A DNA stretch of 64,000 nucleotides from a virus (Duplodnaviria; Heunggongvirae; Uroviricota; Caudoviricetes). The position numbers and the translations under genes are program-made. The first letter of the stretch is position 1, and every line of letters starts with the position of its first letter. The notes under the pieces are model-generated. The model was not told the DNA's origin, ran no database searches, and saw only the letters and a list, made by a program, of their open reading frames with translations. Below, piece after piece: positions 36,762 to 41,530 of the stretch. Location: IMG/VR virus record IMGVR_UViG_3300042554_002914. One strand, written 5' to 3'.

Positions 36762-39700
36762 TCAGGACAAGATGTTGGTGATCATAGCGCCAGAACCGAT
36801 AAGACCAGATGCACCGAGGCCAACCAAGTTAACCACACGTTCGATGGTGATTTCAGCACGCACGACACGGCGTTCGCGAATGTAGTACTCCAATTTGTTA
36901 TCGTAAAGGCTCTTTATCCTCTACATCTTTGTATTTCTACAAAGTTCAGACTATATCTTTGCCTTACATCCTTATGTAAGACATTAGGCGCTCGTGGAGT
37001 TTTCATCTGTTCTAGATTACTAACTCTAGTCGTTGAACGTTCGTTTTCTCCCGAAAACGCTTCGCTGCTGATTGCCATGGTTTGAAGTTCAAACGTTAGG
37101 GTCCCAGCAATTCACCTAATTTCTTTTTATGTCAGACCCCAGTAGTTAAGGACGGACAGCGGGTGTTCCTGTGAGTTGATCATTTTTGTTAGCGTAAAGG
37201 TTATTTATCCTTCACTTCTTTACATTTCTGCAAAGATCAGACTATATCTTCTTCCTGAAATTTCTTATCAATCCGGTAACATGACTATCAGGTAGATTTA
37301 AGTGTCGTGCGAACTTGCGAATTGCTGGTTTACCCAGCTCTACCCAAAGTTCAAACAATTCATCAAACCTAGACCATAACTCTTTTCTCGATCTGGGGTT
37401 ATTTATTCCCCTTACCTTTAGAGACAAGGTTTTCGAGATTTTCAGTTTATGCTCTTCAGTCATTTTTCTACCAGTCCAGGGATGATTTGACTTATCCTTG
37501 AAATGATTTTTATGCCAGTCACTGTTTTTTCTTTTAGCTTCTTCTGAGCTTCCTAATTTGGGGGAAATTAAACTAATCTCCCTTGAACCTAGCCCCCATT
37601 GTTTTGAACTTTTCCAAATTGCCCACCATAATTTTTTATTATGGGGTTGGGATAAACTTAAAAGTAAATGGGCTATGTAGTGTTCTCTCCGGGTCAGCAT
37701 TACTAGGTTTGATACTTCATCATTCCCTCCACAACAAATAGGAATAATGTGATGTTTTTCAAGCCCATTTTTGCTTCCCCTTCGTTTGGGGATTGGCCGA
37801 AGTAAAAGTAAACGTGATGTGATAAGATTCCAATACCACTTTTCCCATTTATTAAGAAAGTGACATTCTATCAGGAGTGGGGCACTCGTGGATGGGTTAT
37901 TATTTTCGGTATTCACCATCTAGTCGTTGAACCTTTTGACTACAACTCTATTATAGCATAGAGTCCGAAATAGTCAACTTGGCTGCTGATTACCATAGCT
38001 TTCAAACTTTCGTTTGAAGCCGTAGGCTTCCCAGCAATTCACCCCATTGATCTGCGGATCAGGCAGATAATTTGACGTTACCGTCAAACCACGCATTCAA
38101 CTCGTTTAAAAGAAACGATGTTATTAACATACGTGTAACTGAAGGCCGGAGTCGCAGCATTAGCACCACCCGCAGGCATGATCGAATCAGAAGGGCCGTT
38201 GGGGCTGTAGAACAGGAGGATGCCATTGGCGGGGAAGACAGGCTGCAAGGAGCCGTCGTTGGCCAAATAACGCCCTTCAGCTACGCGCAGGCCACGCTCA
38301 AGACCGAAGTAGCGAGCGATGACATCTGTGTCGATGCTATTGGCGGAGGTGTACTTGATACGATCAAGGATCGCTTCGTTGGTCAGCAAGAGGTCGAAAA
38401 CCGAAGTTCCAAGAACAGCGGAGTTCGGACGAATGCCGATCTGGTTGGCAACAGCACGCTTCAGGGTCAGGATGTCCTCAATGGGATTAGAGGTTGCACC
38501 AGACCATGCGGCAGGGCCAGTGGCTGTGCCATAAGCGGTGTTGAAGGCGGTCCAGGTTGTAAAACCAAGACCAGTTTGTGAGCCAGGAGTCCCATTGTAG
38601 GGCTCGTATGGATTGTAGCTGCCAGTCACTGAAACAGCTTGAGCAACGGTGTACTCGTAGCTGTTCATTCATTATGTTATCGCGAGGGCTCTTTATCCCT
38701 TGCTTCTGCATGTTTCTATGCAGTTCAGACTATATCATCGTTTTGTAAACAAAACGTCAGGCGCTCGTGTCAGCTTCATTACTGTTCTAGTAGTATGCTG
38801 TTAGTCGTTGAACGTTCCGTCAATCCCTTGACGGCTTCGCTGCTGATTACCATAGCATCAAACTTTCGTTTGAAACCGTAGGTTTCCCAGCAATTCACCC
38901 AATTTTCTAAATGAGATTAATCTCATAGGGCCAATGTGTTTAGCCTAGACATCGCGTTGCGAGTCTCGATGGCGCGTAGCATTTGTTAACTCAGCGGCTC
39001 TTTATCCACTGATTCATTACCTTGTCGTTGGTAATGTTCAGACTATATTATTGCCCCACTATGTACACGATTACTGTACTTTGTAAGACATTGGGCGCTC
39101 GTGTCAGCTTCATTACTGTTCTAGTAGTATGCTGTTAGTCGTTGAACGTTCCGTCAATCCCTTGACGGCTTCGCTGCTGATTGCCCACGCGGGGGTTCCA
39201 GCAATTCACCCAATTTATAGTGGACCTACGCTGCGATCGAAATCGTTCGTAAAAAATAATCCACTTGTGCAGGACCTTCTCCTGCGTTTTCGATTCAATA
39301 ATGTTATCGCAAAGATTTTATTCTATGCTTCTTTACATTTCTGTAAAGTTCAGACTATATCTTCACCCCTGTTTTTCTTTCTTAGCTTAGCCATATGCTC
39401 ACGGGCAATCTGCCTATGGGTTTCAGACTTTTCTTTATCCGCCCAGTACTTTTTGGCGGACTCACTTCTCTTTTCCTTTTCCTCTTCAGTTTGAACCCTT
39501 CCTCTATTAGCTTCGTGAGCTTTTTTAAGTGTTTTTTCGGGCAGGGATTTACCCATCTTGGTTTTACTAAGTCTTTCTCGCATTTGCTTGGACTTAGGTC
39601 TTCCTTTCTCGGCTGCCCCCGGGGCAATACCGAATGAGGTCTTTTGTAGGGAAGTAGCTAAAATAGATGTACGTGGTCGGTAGGTAATGGCGCCTTCTCC

Positions 39701-41530
39701 GCATTTAACTCCCAACATCCTTCTAACTGCATACCAGTGTTTTACTGAGTTAGCACCTTTCGCAAGGAGGACATGGGCTATGAAGTGTTCTCGGATTGTT
39801 AGTTTTACTCTGTTTCCTTTGGAGTTATCCCCACCGTCACACTTAGGTATGATGTGATGGACGTGGTATCCCCTTTCCTTGGAGATTCCTCTATACTTCC
39901 TGGAGGAGCAGAGTTCGTGGTACCATTTTAACCATTTGTTAGGGTGCTGGGCGCTCGTGGATGGGTTATTATTTTCGGTATTCACCATCTAGTCGTTGAA
40001 CCTTTTGACTACAACTCTATTATAGCATAGAGTCCGAAATAGTCAACTTGGCTGCTGATTGCCTTGTGTTTCAGAGAAGTCACTCCTGAAACCGTCAGGG
40101 TTCCCAGCAATTCACCCAGTTTTTCTATCAGTTTTTCAACTGACGGAGGCTATCGATCTAACCTCTTCAGGCAATTCCCAAGCCACTACTTCTTGTTCAA
40201 GAGCGTAGGGCTCAGAGTCGTAACGGCTCTGTACATACGGAATGTTAGTCCCGTAAGCACGGCGGAAGTCGTTAATAGCAAATTGTTCCTTCAATTATGT
40301 TATCGCAGGGGCTCTTTATCCCCCACTTCTCTTTGTTTCCAAAGAGTTCAGACTATATCATCGTTTTGTAAACAAAACGTCAGGCGCTCGTGGAGTTTTC
40401 ATCTGTTCTAGATTACTAACTCTAGTCGTTGAACGTTCCGTCAATCCCTTGACGGCTTCGCTGCTGATTACCATAGCATCAAACTTTCGTTTGAAGCCGT
40501 AGGCTTCCCAGCAATTCACCCAATTTTTCATAACCCCTCACGGAGTTAAGCGGCATATGGAATACCGAAGCGCAGGATACGTCCTGCACGAGTTGGCGTG
40601 TCTACCACCGGTGCTATGAATAATATACAAAACTTAACGTTTTGCTCTGCATGTTTCCATGCAGTTTAGACTATATCATCATCTTTGCCTAAGCAAAGAG
40701 TCGGGCGCTCGTGGAAAGATTATTCTTGGGTCAGTCACTTTCTAGTCGTTGAACCTTCTTACTTCACTCTTATTATAGCAACAAGAGACCCGAAGTAAAC
40801 TTGGCTGCTGATTGCCTCTTTTGCGTAGCAAAAGTAAGGTGTCCCAGCAGTTCACCCGATTATTCGACAGGGGTCACCCCCTGAAGGAACCTCATTGATT
40901 CGCAATGTTGGTAGACGGTAGCATGAAACCTTGCGCGAGGGTGGTGAGACATTTGTTAACGTAGAGGCTCTTTATTCCCTACCTCTCTTTGTTTCCAAAG
41001 AGTTCAGACTATATCATCGTTTTGTAAACAAAACGCCCGGCGCTCGTGGAGTTTTCATCTGTTCTAGATTACTAACTCTAGTCGTTGAACCTTCCTTTTC
41101 TCCCGAAAAGGCTTGGCTGCTGATTACCATAGCTTTCAAACTTTCGTTTGAAGCCGTAGGCTTCCCAGCAATTCACCGGATTTTCTTTGTTAAAAACAAA
41201 GCCACTCCTTTAAATGGGCAATATGTTATCGCAAAGGCTCTTTATCCCTTGCTTCTACATGTTTCCATGTAGGCCAGACTATATCATCATCCTATAACTC
41301 CCATGCTGAGGAGTCAAGGAGCTGGGCGCTCGTGGAGTTTTCATCTGTTCTAGATTACTAACTCTAGTCGTTGAACGTTCCGTCAATCCCTTGACGGCTT
41401 CGCTGCTGATTGCCTCTTTTGCATAGCAAAAGTAAGGTGTCCCAGCAATTCACCCAGTTTTCTGCCATCATTAAAATGACAGGGACCCTAATTAATCCAC
41501 ACCTGCGTAGGTCTGTTGTAGATTCATCAT
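36762..41530 (-). CDS. Major capsid protein, 351 aa, in 10 exons: 41530-41495, 41218-41214, 40949-40898, 40620-40564, 40291-40161, 39295-39259, 38979-38942, 38669-38131, 37180-37149, 36890-36762
   Basis: Exon lengths 36+5+52+57+131+37+38+539+32+129 = 1056 nt = 351 codons plus stop, with no internal stops: MMNLQQTYAGVDPILTTLAQGFMLPSTNIANFIAPVVDTPTRAGRILRFGKEQFAINDFRRAYGTNIPYVQSRYDSEPYALEQEVVAWELPEEVIENAGEGPAQVDLRAIETRNAMSRLMNSYEY...AFSYTYQLTGTPAVRPEYYIRERRVVRAEITIERVVNLVGLGASGLIGSGAMITNILS. VDPILT..A.G, FGKE.F and W....SNPIEDI...K....IGIRPN match capsid proteins of this type. The gene lies downstream of the portal, protease and decoration genes. Confidence 0.9.
36891..37148 (-). mobile_element. 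Group I intron 9 (258 nt)
   Basis: Core elements; P1 UCCU with GGGG; P10 UACU with AGUA; terminal G. Confidence 0.9.
37242..37919 (-). CDS. Intron-encoded HNH homing endonuclease with NUMOD3-like motif
   Basis: EKHHIIPICCGGNDEVSNLVMLTRREHYIAH; HPWTGRKMTEEHKLKISK; stop TAG lies within GAUAUAG. Confidence 0.88.
   Translation of the reverse strand: MVNTENNNPSTSAPLLIECHFLNKWEKWYWNLITSRLLLLRPIPKRRGSKNGLEKHHIIPICCGGNDEVSNLVMLTRREHYIAHLLLSLSQPHNKKLWWAIWKSSKQWGLGSREISLISPKLGSSEEAKRKNSDWHKNHFKDKSNHPWTGRKMTEEHKLKISKTLSLKVRGINNPRSRKELWSRFDELFELWVELGKPAIRKFARHLNLPDSHVTGLIRNFRKKI
37950..37977 (-). promoter_or_regulatory. Sigma70-type promoter inside intron 8 for the HNH gene
   Basis: TTGACT-N16-TATAAT with extended -10 (TGC TATAAT), 30 nt upstream of ATG 37919. 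Confidence 0.7.
38670..38941 (-). mobile_element. Group I intron 7 (272 nt)
   Basis: P1 GGCU with GGCC; P10 CAUU with AAUG; terminal G; splits a Leu codon CT|A. Confidence 0.9.
38980..39258 (-). mobile_element. Group I intron 6 (279 nt)
   Basis: P1 GUGGAU with GUCCAC; P10 GCGUAG with CUACGC; terminal G. Confidence 0.9.
39350..39988 (-). CDS. Intron-encoded HNH homing endonuclease with NUMOD3-like repeats
   Basis: HVHHIIPKCDGGDNSKGNRVKLTIREHFIAH; basic repeats (KSKQMRERLSK, GRVQTEEEKEKRSES); stop lies within the GAUAUAGUCUGA core element. Confidence 0.88.
   Translation of the reverse strand: MVNTENNNPSTSAQHPNKWLKWYHELCSSRKYRGISKERGYHVHHIIPKCDGGDNSKGNRVKLTIREHFIAHVLLAKGANSVKHWYAVRRMLGVKCGEGAITYRPRTSILATSLQKTSFGIAPGAAEKGRPKSKQMRERLSKTKMGKSLPEKTLKKAHEANRGRVQTEEEKEKRSESAKKYWADKEKSETHRQIAREHMAKLRKKNRGEDIV
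40019..40046 (-). promoter_or_regulatory. Sigma70-type promoter inside intron 5 for the HNH gene
   Basis: Identical TTGACT-N16-TATAAT, 30 nt upstream of ATG 39988. Confidence 0.7.
40292..40563 (-). mobile_element. Group I intron 4 (272 nt)
   Basis: Core elements; P1 CGGU with GCCG; UUCC can pair with 3' exon GGAA; terminal G. Confidence 0.9.
40621..40897 (-). mobile_element. Group I intron 3 (277 nt), terminal nucleotide A
   Basis: Core elements present; P1 GAAU with GUUC; P10 AUGAG with exon UUCAU. Confidence 0.85.
40950..41213 (-). mobile_element. Group I intron 2 (264 nt)
   Basis: Same core elements; P1 CCAU with GUGG; terminal G; splits an Ile codon AT|T. Confidence 0.88.
41219..41494 (-). 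mobile_element. Group I intron 1 of capsid gene (276 nt)
   Basis: Core elements GAAUUGCUGGGA, AAUCAGCAGC, GUUCAACGACUAG, GAUAUAGUCU; P1 exon GGAU with GUCC (U.G at the splice site); terminal G. Confidence 0.9.

Follow-up and report, generated by a model that had tools for sequence, protein, structure and literature searches.

Evidence for hairpin exchange among the group I introns of a lake jumbo phage capsid gene

How have nine group I introns within a single phage gene come to share their hairpins in so many different combinations? The question arises from a 64,000-nucleotide (nt) stretch of the IMG/VR virus record IMGVR_UViG_3300042554_002914, in which the gene for the major capsid protein is interrupted nine times. 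This whole stretch is referred to here as the window (WIN), and labels beginning with L or G denote related IMG/VR contigs and genomes. An initial annotation, based on the letters of the window, had described the introns as mosaics of recurring modules and had proposed gene conversion among neighbouring introns, with crossing over in the core motifs, as their origin. By combining a core-anchored segmentation of the nine introns with a comparison of related capsid genes, we find that at least 14 positions in this gene, across a population of lake phages, have been occupied by introns of a single group I family and that introns at the same site of close alleles differ by whole hairpins. We consider it likely that the hairpins of the family have been replaced repeatedly by non-reciprocal patches which stem from the same capsid-gene array and are bounded by core sequence.

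The nine introns lie at 36891-41494 on the minus strand and were identified with the Rfam covariance model RF00028, whose matches in the source contig are confined to the capsid gene. Eight of them score above the gathering score of 50 (55.7-97.4 bits); intron 8, with a 680-nt open reading frame (ORF) insert, reaches 47.2 bits (E 1e-09) and falls below it. Common to all nine are five invariant or near-invariant core blocks of 10-13 nt each, and the segments left after cutting the introns at these blocks are the modules P5, P6, P7.1/7.2, P8 and P9. Intron sites are numbered by position in the uninterrupted coding sequence (CDS).

Core block P3/P4: GGTGAATTGCTGG
Core block P4': AATCAGCAGC
Core block J6/7-P7: GTTCAACGACTA
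Core block P3': CACGAGCGCC
Core block J8/7-P7': GATATAGTCT

36762-41530, minus strand: major capsid protein gene, lambda gpE-like (PF03864 on the large exon, E 3.6e-09)
41219-41494, minus strand: intron 1, site 36, RF00028 85.9 bits, guide GTCC pairing with exon GGAT; P5 type A 41412-41441, P6 X 41377-41401, P7.1 a 41335-41364, unique P8 41286-41324
40950-41213, minus strand: intron 2, site 41, RF00028 97.4 bits; P5 type B 41126-41164, P6 Y 41091-41115, P7.1 a 41049-41078, P8 t 41016-41038
40621-40897, minus strand: intron 3, site 93, RF00028 94.3 bits, without ORF; P5 type A 40814-40843, promoter-like P6 Z' 40755-40803, unique P7.1 40714-40742
40292-40563, minus strand: intron 4, site 150, RF00028 85.8 bits; P5 type B 40470-40507, P6 X 40435-40459, P7.1 a 40393-40422, P8 t 40360-40382
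39296-40160, minus strand: intron 5, site 281, RF00028 56 + 32 bits in two pieces, HNH ORF in P8; unique P5 40061-40103, promoter P6 Z (predicted) 40002-40050, P7.1 c 39960-39989
38980-39258, minus strand: intron 6, site 318, RF00028 55.7 bits; short unique P5 39183-39197, P6 X 39148-39172, P7.1 b 39104-39135
38670-38941, minus strand: intron 7, site 357, RF00028 86.7 bits; P5 type B 38849-38886, P6 X 38814-38838, P7.1 b 38770-38801, P8 t 38737-38759
37181-38130, minus strand: intron 8, site 896, HNH ORF in P8; P5 type B 37992-38030, promoter P6 Z (predicted) 37933-37981, P7.1 c 37891-37920
36891-37148, minus strand: intron 9, site 927, RF00028 92.7 bits; unique P5 37074-37103, P6 Y 37039-37063, P7.1 a 36997-37026
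39954-40060, minus strand: 107-nt block identical to 37885-37991, the exact longest common substring

The identities between corresponding modules are bimodal, at about 95-100% or at about 30-65%, the latter being the level of unrelated sequence. Since pairs of different type are only 30-65% identical, the module types are discrete. P5 is of type A in introns 1 and 3 (97% alike), of type B in introns 2, 4, 7 and 8 (90-100%), and unique in introns 5, 6 and 9. P6 of type X is identical over 25/25 nt in introns 1, 4, 6 and 7, and type Y is 84% alike in introns 2 and 9, with differences that preserve the stem pairing; type Z is identical over 49/49 nt in introns 5 and 8 and 74% alike to the P6 of intron 3. 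The segment following P7 is identical over 30/30 nt in introns 1, 2, 4 and 9, over 32/32 nt in introns 6 and 7 and over 30/30 nt in introns 5 and 8, and the P8 hairpin is identical in introns 2, 4 and 7. The nine introns are therefore mosaics of recurring modules, just as the initial annotation had claimed: its module table was reproduced in every cell, and the segment identities of each intron agree with its groupings for P5, P6, the post-P7 segment and P8. The 107-nt block was likewise located exactly where it had been reported. It covers the P4' core, the promoter P6, the J6/7-P7 core, P7.1 with the ORF start and the first part of the P3' core. Beyond this pair, the longest exact block between window introns is at most 89 nt, and exact identity of 47-107 nt occurs, via shared neighbouring modules, in thirteen intron pairs.

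The guide sequences had been described as site-specific, and this also proved correct. A T closes all nine 5' exons, and within the first 40 nt of every intron the guide forms 4-7 bp with its own 5' exon. The terminal nucleotide is G in eight of the nine introns and A in intron 3, where the junction is unambiguous by comparison with the uninterrupted capsid copy of L014. Intron 3 also does not have the ATAAAGAGC-type 3' hairpin that is present in seven of the eight other introns; intron 5 has ATAAAATC at this place. All nine introns contain a 29-32-nt segment between P7 and P3' that is closed by a covarying 4-5-bp stem, a candidate for the P7.1/P7.2 extension of subgroup IA-type phage introns, which have one or more extra helices at this position.

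The initial annotation had expected the modules to be incongruent with each other and had proposed recombination tests, and both lines of analysis bore out the mosaic. All four combinations of two P5 and two P6 types are present (AX in intron 1, AZ' in intron 3, BX in introns 4 and 7, BZ in intron 8), and the same holds for P7.1 (a/b) and P8 (t/v). The P5 and P6 identity matrices are uncorrelated (Mantel r=-0.19); an appreciable correlation is confined to the pairs P6-P7.1, P6-P9.1 and P7.1-P9.1. The pairwise homoplasy index (PHI), calculated from a MAFFT alignment with 140 informative sites, was so low for neighbouring sites that 0/2000 site permutations reached the observed value at each of three window sizes (p<1/2000). 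A single tree cannot explain the module pattern.

To compare natural alleles, 80 of 234 IMG/VR relatives of the capsid gene were used; 12 records of 91%-identity relatives, in which a pattern scan had merged neighbouring introns, are left out of all counts. Most relatives at 82% identity have an uninterrupted capsid gene, and those at 91-99% identity carry 1 to 13 introns of the same family. Together they reveal at least 14 insertion sites (9, 36, 41, 93, 150, 160, 193, 276, 281, 303, 318, 357, 896 and 927), nine of which are occupied in the window and 13 in L001/L002, a complete 279-kb genome, so that up to 13 introns are found in one CDS of 1056 nt. Among 91 distinct introns there are 26 types of guide segment, a single one of which is common to more than one site. 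Individual types of the other modules range much further, one P6 type being found at 11 sites, one P9 type at nine and single P7.1 and P5 types at seven sites each. No fixed pattern governs the distribution, over sites and genomes, of three P6 sequences (25 nt) and three P7.1 sequences (30-32 nt) that recur exactly.

The strongest evidence for exchange between introns is provided by the whole-hairpin differences between introns of the same site, and the comparison with related phage contigs suggested by the initial annotation thus supports shuffling. We compared five close alleles, namely the window, L001, L016, L034 and L037. The last four carry 11-13 introns, and the exons of the window differ from theirs by 1.6-4.4%. 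In same-site introns of these alleles, the guide and P2 segments and the flanks are mostly identical or near-identical and whole modules are different. At site 318, the window and L001 have 12 differences in P6 and elsewhere 1 nt in the 5' segment; at site 150, the same two alleles differ by replacement of P6 and P9 and by one more change, in P9.1. P6 and P7.1 are both replaced at site 160 between L001 and L016 (26+18 differences), with one more change in P9. At site 357, the window and L037 have different P5, P6 and P7.1 modules and not one difference elsewhere, including the guide, P8 and P9. Moreover, site 276 has the promoter-type P6, P7.1 type c and an HNH ORF in L001 and plain hairpins in L016, with P5 and P9 unchanged except for one nucleotide.

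Across 89 ortholog pairs, 86% of the differing alignment columns lie in blocks of at least 10 nt, and the difference blocks of orthologous introns begin and end at the invariant core blocks. Among the five alleles we count at least 46 whole-module replacements (17 of P6, 11 of P7.1, seven of P8, six of P9 and five of P5), compared to 14-43 exon substitutions between alleles. The P6 differences between the window and L001 are those of a non-reciprocal short-tract transfer between paralogous repeats: at sites 36, 41, 150 and 318 the window has X, Y, X, X and L001 has Y, X, Y, Y, without a compensating swap. Furthermore, the exons are in order at 37 of 38 loci (the remaining one, L031, is uncertain), which indicates that the events are internal patches and not deleting crossovers. 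In intron 4, the stretch from the guide to P7.1 (the P2 end together with P5, P6 and P7.1) recurs exactly in L034, and the P9 hairpins differ.

The module pool is private to the capsid gene. In 55 introns of unrelated viral contigs that have the same P3/P4 core, the best identities to the capsid P5, P6 and P7.1 modules are 0.5-0.75, which is the level of unrelated sequence, and no P5, P6 or P7.1 type is common to these introns and those of the capsid gene. Five contigs are excepted (L106, L119, L158, L159 and L165); their modules match capsid-gene introns, and they probably derive, as fragments, from this phage group. Three further group I introns of the complete 279-kb relative interrupt another gene, at a distance of about 50 kb (L196, G001:C1:20378-21454); they contain no capsid modules, their similarity being limited to 19-35 nt at core level. 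Since the outside introns are devoid of capsid modules, the pool is the capsid array itself.

Part of what moves within this array concerns the expression of intron-encoded nucleases. Introns 5 and 8 each contain an ORF of this kind:

39350-39988, minus strand: HNH homing endonuclease ORF of intron 5, 212 aa (PHROG 655 homing endonuclease, E 3.2e-24)
37242-37919, minus strand: HNH homing endonuclease ORF of intron 8, 225 aa (PHROG 655 homing endonuclease, E 2.8e-26)

With the Pfam HNH model the two ORFs score 17.6 and 16.5 bits, under the cut-off of 21.4 (E 0.0097 for the intron 5 ORF), and comparison with PDB sequences gave marginal matches only (E 0.1). The intron 5 ORF is 71% alike to the site-281 ORF of L029. 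In both ORFs the ATG lies inside the P7.1 hairpin, and the frame runs through the invariant P3' core into P8. The two ORFs have the first 12 codons in common and then diverge, being 22% alike overall. At 39950-39988 and 37881-37919, the ribozyme core also encodes the first 12 residues (MVNTENNNPSTS) of two different nucleases. Upstream of the start codons, P6 of introns 5 and 8 contains a sigma-70-like sequence, TTGACT-16-TATAAT with an upstream TG, that matches at 11/12 positions (40046-40019 and 37977-37950); a 10/12 version is present in P6 of intron 3.

The initial annotation had suggested that endonuclease cassettes could move between introns. Of this proposal, movement of the promoter-type P6 with the start-codon P7.1 stood, and movement of whole nuclease genes did not, as the ORF bodies were seen at one mapped site each. 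The 40 ORF-bearing introns encode 26 distinct proteins in 17 families (at least 70% identity), every one of which occurs at a single mapped insertion site, and no movement of a nuclease ORF body between sites was seen at this threshold. Such single-site families fit nucleases that target the site in which they reside. The P6(Z)-P7.1(c) pair, on the other hand, is found at sites 276, 281, 318, 357 and 896, at site 357 in L037 without an ORF behind it, and the site-281 ORF family sits behind a different P6/P7.1 in L029. Since the ORF bodies are site-bound and P6/P7.1 is common to several sites, the moving cassette appears to be an expression module rather than the nuclease, consisting of a predicted promoter in P6 and of P7.1 with the start codon and the first 12 codons. 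Intron 3 represents an ORF-less version of its intron; L024, L035, L037 and L038 carry an HNH ORF at the same site, 93. In addition, exon 5 (40161-40291) is 85% identical to the otherwise nearest relatives of the window, 97% to L004 and 92% to L029, and these two contigs share with intron 5 its P5 type or its HNH family. The exon therefore looks like a co-conversion tract that arrived with the homing of intron 5, which would account for the empty sites 160, 193 and 276 in the window.

All exchanged parts are compatible with the ribozyme fold. Every module variant folds as a hairpin of its own; P5 consists of a stem plus an extension, and P6, P8, P9 and the post-P7 segment each have a covarying closing stem. 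As the exchanged units carry both strands of their own helix, chimeric introns keep the fold. The nucleotides flanking P6 (for example 41401/41377 and 41115/41091) covary with its type and are G...C for X and C...G for Y and Z. The covariation points to a base pair that closes P6 across an A-rich internal loop and would be exchanged together with the hairpin. The situation is different for the distal part of P3, the variable part of a long-range helix, which is largely linked to the site. Here, 3.12 of 4 pairs are matched, compared to 2.43 when the 3' strands are dealt at random to other introns. Such matching is expected if the surviving events are internal patches, or if half-intron swaps have been purged by selection.

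Several observations weigh against exchange within the array as the origin of the mosaics. The cores, with 10-13 nt, are short for homologous recombination unless shared modules extend the homology, and the splicing of the mosaic introns is itself an assumption. The preference for neighbouring introns that formed part of the original proposal was not borne out, in contrast to the core-bounded shuffling of hairpins, which was upheld by both the incongruence within the window and the ortholog swaps: in an array-wide test, adjacent introns were not more alike than distant ones, so the whole array behaves as one pool. The concerted-evolution signature of intragenomic gene conversion is absent, too. 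The frequency of identical paralogous P6 pairs is 0.197 within and 0.174 between genomes (p=0.11), and the corresponding values are 0.145 and 0.141 for P7.1, 0.052 and 0.042 for P5 and 0.021 and 0.022 for P9. In view of this lack of excess identity within genomes, we do not claim that exchange takes place within one genome; the partners may be parts of one molecule, replicating copies or co-infecting phages. Further points of this kind concern the assembly. The module combinations of the window are those of the assembled contig, intron 3 is the only window intron with an exact twin in another contig, and each of the P5-P6 junctions of introns 1 and 9 is present in IMG/VR only in the window itself. 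Moreover, in the 2.2-kb contig L031 (1-2195), the GGTGAATTGCTGG core connects CDS positions 796-897 and P1/P2 of a site-896 intron with the body of a site-281 intron. Downstream of this hybrid junction the contig is 99.85% identical to L027. The junction may stem from an unequal crossover or an excised circle, or else the contig is an assembly chimera induced by the repeats. Taken together with exact blocks of up to 107 nt common to the introns and with the many relative contigs that terminate within the capsid gene, these points raise the possibility that a short-read assembler misthreaded the repeat graph and that the combinations do not exist on real molecules. We regard this as improbable. 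Because the cores measure just 10-13 nt, the module junctions must be spanned by real k-mers at any usual k. One false join of two introns would leave exons missing or duplicated, but 37 of the 38 intron-bearing loci are collinear and the reading frame of the window is intact. All 13 introns of L001 are exactly present in L002, which comes from another metagenome, and the last three also in L003; the intron-8-type junction is shared by L001, L002 and L003, other intron haplotypes recur in 3-10 contigs, and for the swaps at sites 150, 160 and 281 each of the two alleles was assembled in at least two different metagenomes. Support by k-mers from other contigs for the window junctions amounts to 30-60%, lowered by private single-nucleotide polymorphisms and ORFs, and is not decisive.

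The other explanations accept the combinations as real and differ in where they were made. Mosaics might have been built elsewhere and have arrived by separate homing events from an external pool, with no exchange within the array; the HNH nucleases and the likely co-conversion tract in exon 5 indicate that homing operates here, and at least 115 matches to the same P3/P4 core are found in viral contigs. Yet, leaving out the five probable capsid fragments, no modules are common to the array and either the 55 outside introns with this core or the three additional introns of the complete relative, and orthologous introns with different internal patches and two identical site-specific ends are not the product of whole-intron homing, so that this origin has little probability. 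As the main source of modules, an external pool was rejected in view of these module-free outside introns. Simple descent, in which the introns arose by duplication and point mutation without recombination, would account for the cores common to all nine introns and for the sharing of some modules, as in copies of one ancestor. However, module types at the level of unrelated sequence stand beside neighbouring modules with 100% identity, all four two-type combinations occur together with a PHI p<1/2000, and hairpins are swapped between alleles whose exons are 96-99% identical. The ortholog swaps, the PHI test and the module incongruence contradict simple descent, to which we attach next to no credence. 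Finally, all introns are part of one transcript, and group I ribozymes are capable of reverse splicing in vitro. Exchange could thus be imagined at the RNA level, by trans-splicing or reverse splicing of intron RNAs followed by reverse transcription and recombination. The reverse-splicing pathway is without direct evidence or experimental support (PMC3984707). Splice sites do not delimit the exchanged units, which are internal hairpins flanked by core strands, and no reverse transcriptase was noticed, although no dedicated search for one was made; we consider this route extremely improbable.

Three kinds of parts make up each intron, namely the five core blocks, self-contained hairpins and ends that are specific to the site, the last comprising the P1 guide, P2, the 3' tail and the distal pairs of P3. 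In the explanation that we favour, the hairpins would be exchanged for those of other array introns by short non-reciprocal patches whose junctions would lie inside the invariant cores or in shared neighbouring modules. Patches of 20-100 nt between dispersed direct repeats would correspond to the pattern of ectopic gene conversion. The likeliest route would be homologous repair or recombination-dependent replication with a paralogous intron as template. Template switches from one paralogous intron to another in the course of such replication or of repair synthesis are one possibility; the other is a whole-intron heteroduplex from which non-homologous hairpins are looped out and repaired independently. 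Breaks made by the HNH nucleases, and homing with co-conversion, may stimulate the exchange by supplying the context for repair. A tentative and rather unlikely extension is that the capsid array constitutes a naturally maintained library of working ribozymes with a pluggable P6/P7.1 expression socket, which is kept by selection during co-infection. In such a library, hairpin modules would turn over at least as fast as point substitutions in the exons, and the P6/P7.1 socket would fit any intron and then be joined to a site-specific nuclease body. Selection would act through nuclease interference between phages or through avoidance of misfolding among near-identical introns, as opposed to neutral churn.

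The structure of the host gene is well defined by the uninterrupted capsid copy in L014 (4177-5229), which is collinear with the spliced exons of the window and sets every exon junction. The ten exons measure 36, 5, 52, 57, 131, 37, 38, 539, 32 and 129 nt, followed by the stop codon, and removal of the introns restores an intact frame for a capsid protein of 351 aa collinear with L014. The nucleotide identity to L014 is 94.6-100% for all exons except exon 5 (85%). The nearest capsid protein from an isolate is that of Synechococcus phage S-CBWM1, with 59.6% identity. Exon 2 comprises just 5 nt (CCCAT, 41214-41218) sandwiched by introns 1 and 2, with both junctions confirmed by L014, and relatives carry a second 5-nt exon between sites 276 and 281. 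Between the uninterrupted copy (L014 and L198-L201) and the 11-intron allele L016 there is a single difference in 1018 exon nt. Of the four contigs with this copy, three are 1.4-1.6 kb long and start 20-70 nt upstream of the ATG, and these short contigs may represent spliced transcripts and not intron-less DNA. In L026 (1-2756), the introns at sites 9 and 36 are as in L012, and there are none at sites 93, 318 and 896, which are all occupied in L012; this contig may be a partly spliced transcript or else belong to another allele. The source contig of the window is a 103-kb record estimated by CheckV to be 37% complete, and complete relatives of the phage are about 279 kb long with terminal repeats. 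The array belongs to a lake jumbo phage from a population of lake phages with genomes of ~280 kb. The capsid gene is part of a minus-strand structural block with a Mu-like portal, a Mu-like protease, two small genes, the lambda-E-like major capsid gene and tail genes.

Overall, the capsid array offers a direct view of a process on whose natural extent there are little data so far, recombination of group I introns being known from laboratory crosses of T4. With about 91 distinct introns at 14 sites and near-identical exons, single exchange events can be read directly. The array reveals which parts of the ribozyme are naturally interchangeable (P5, P6, P7.1/7.2, P8 and P9) and which are linked (the guide and distal P3), and it can serve as a natural design table for chimeric ribozymes. 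It also displays a putative nuclease expression module that spreads apart from the nuclease. For annotators and assemblers it is a caution, as such intron arrays are hard to phase.

Recombination between introns is already known from phage T4. Hall, Liu and Shub reportedly described recombination between the td, nrdB and sunY group I introns in 1989, and Bryk and Belfort are said to have published a study entitled 'Spontaneous shuffling of domains between introns of phage T4' in 1990. In T4, introns exchange in short conserved core sequences, which gives rise to chimeric introns that are able to splice. As in T4, the exchange described here is between different group I introns, with junctions in conserved core sequence. 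However, the T4 events were laboratory crossovers that deleted the DNA between distant genes, whereas here we see internal non-crossover patches in natural alleles. Also unlike T4, 9-13 introns are found in a coding sequence of about 1 kb, the order of the exons is kept and dozens of events separate near-identical alleles. In the literature we found nothing specific on this system or on natural shuffling of phage intron modules. Staphylococcus phage Twort, with three similar group I introns in one ORF (Landthaler & Shub 1999, via PMC3073962), is alike in having several closely related group I introns in one phage gene; it has three introns compared to the 9-13 here, and its description in PMC3073962 mentions neither a modular mosaic nor population alleles. 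Among metagenome-assembled phages, the crAss-like Zeta group has a major capsid protein gene in five fragments (PMC7886860), and the Jug jumbo phages have a mean of 18.5 introns per whole genome (PMC12880540). In both, as here, essential genes including that for the capsid are split by group I introns, many with HNH genes; the intron passages of these two papers make no mention of module shuffling between introns. Separate histories of intron and ORF have been described in other systems (PMC3984707, PMC11878797), and the coexistence of ORF-less and ORF-bearing versions of the same intron in the capsid array is in line with this. In contrast to those systems, the putative expression module is shared between sites of the array, the nuclease body is tied to its site, and ORF-free hairpins are exchanged as well.

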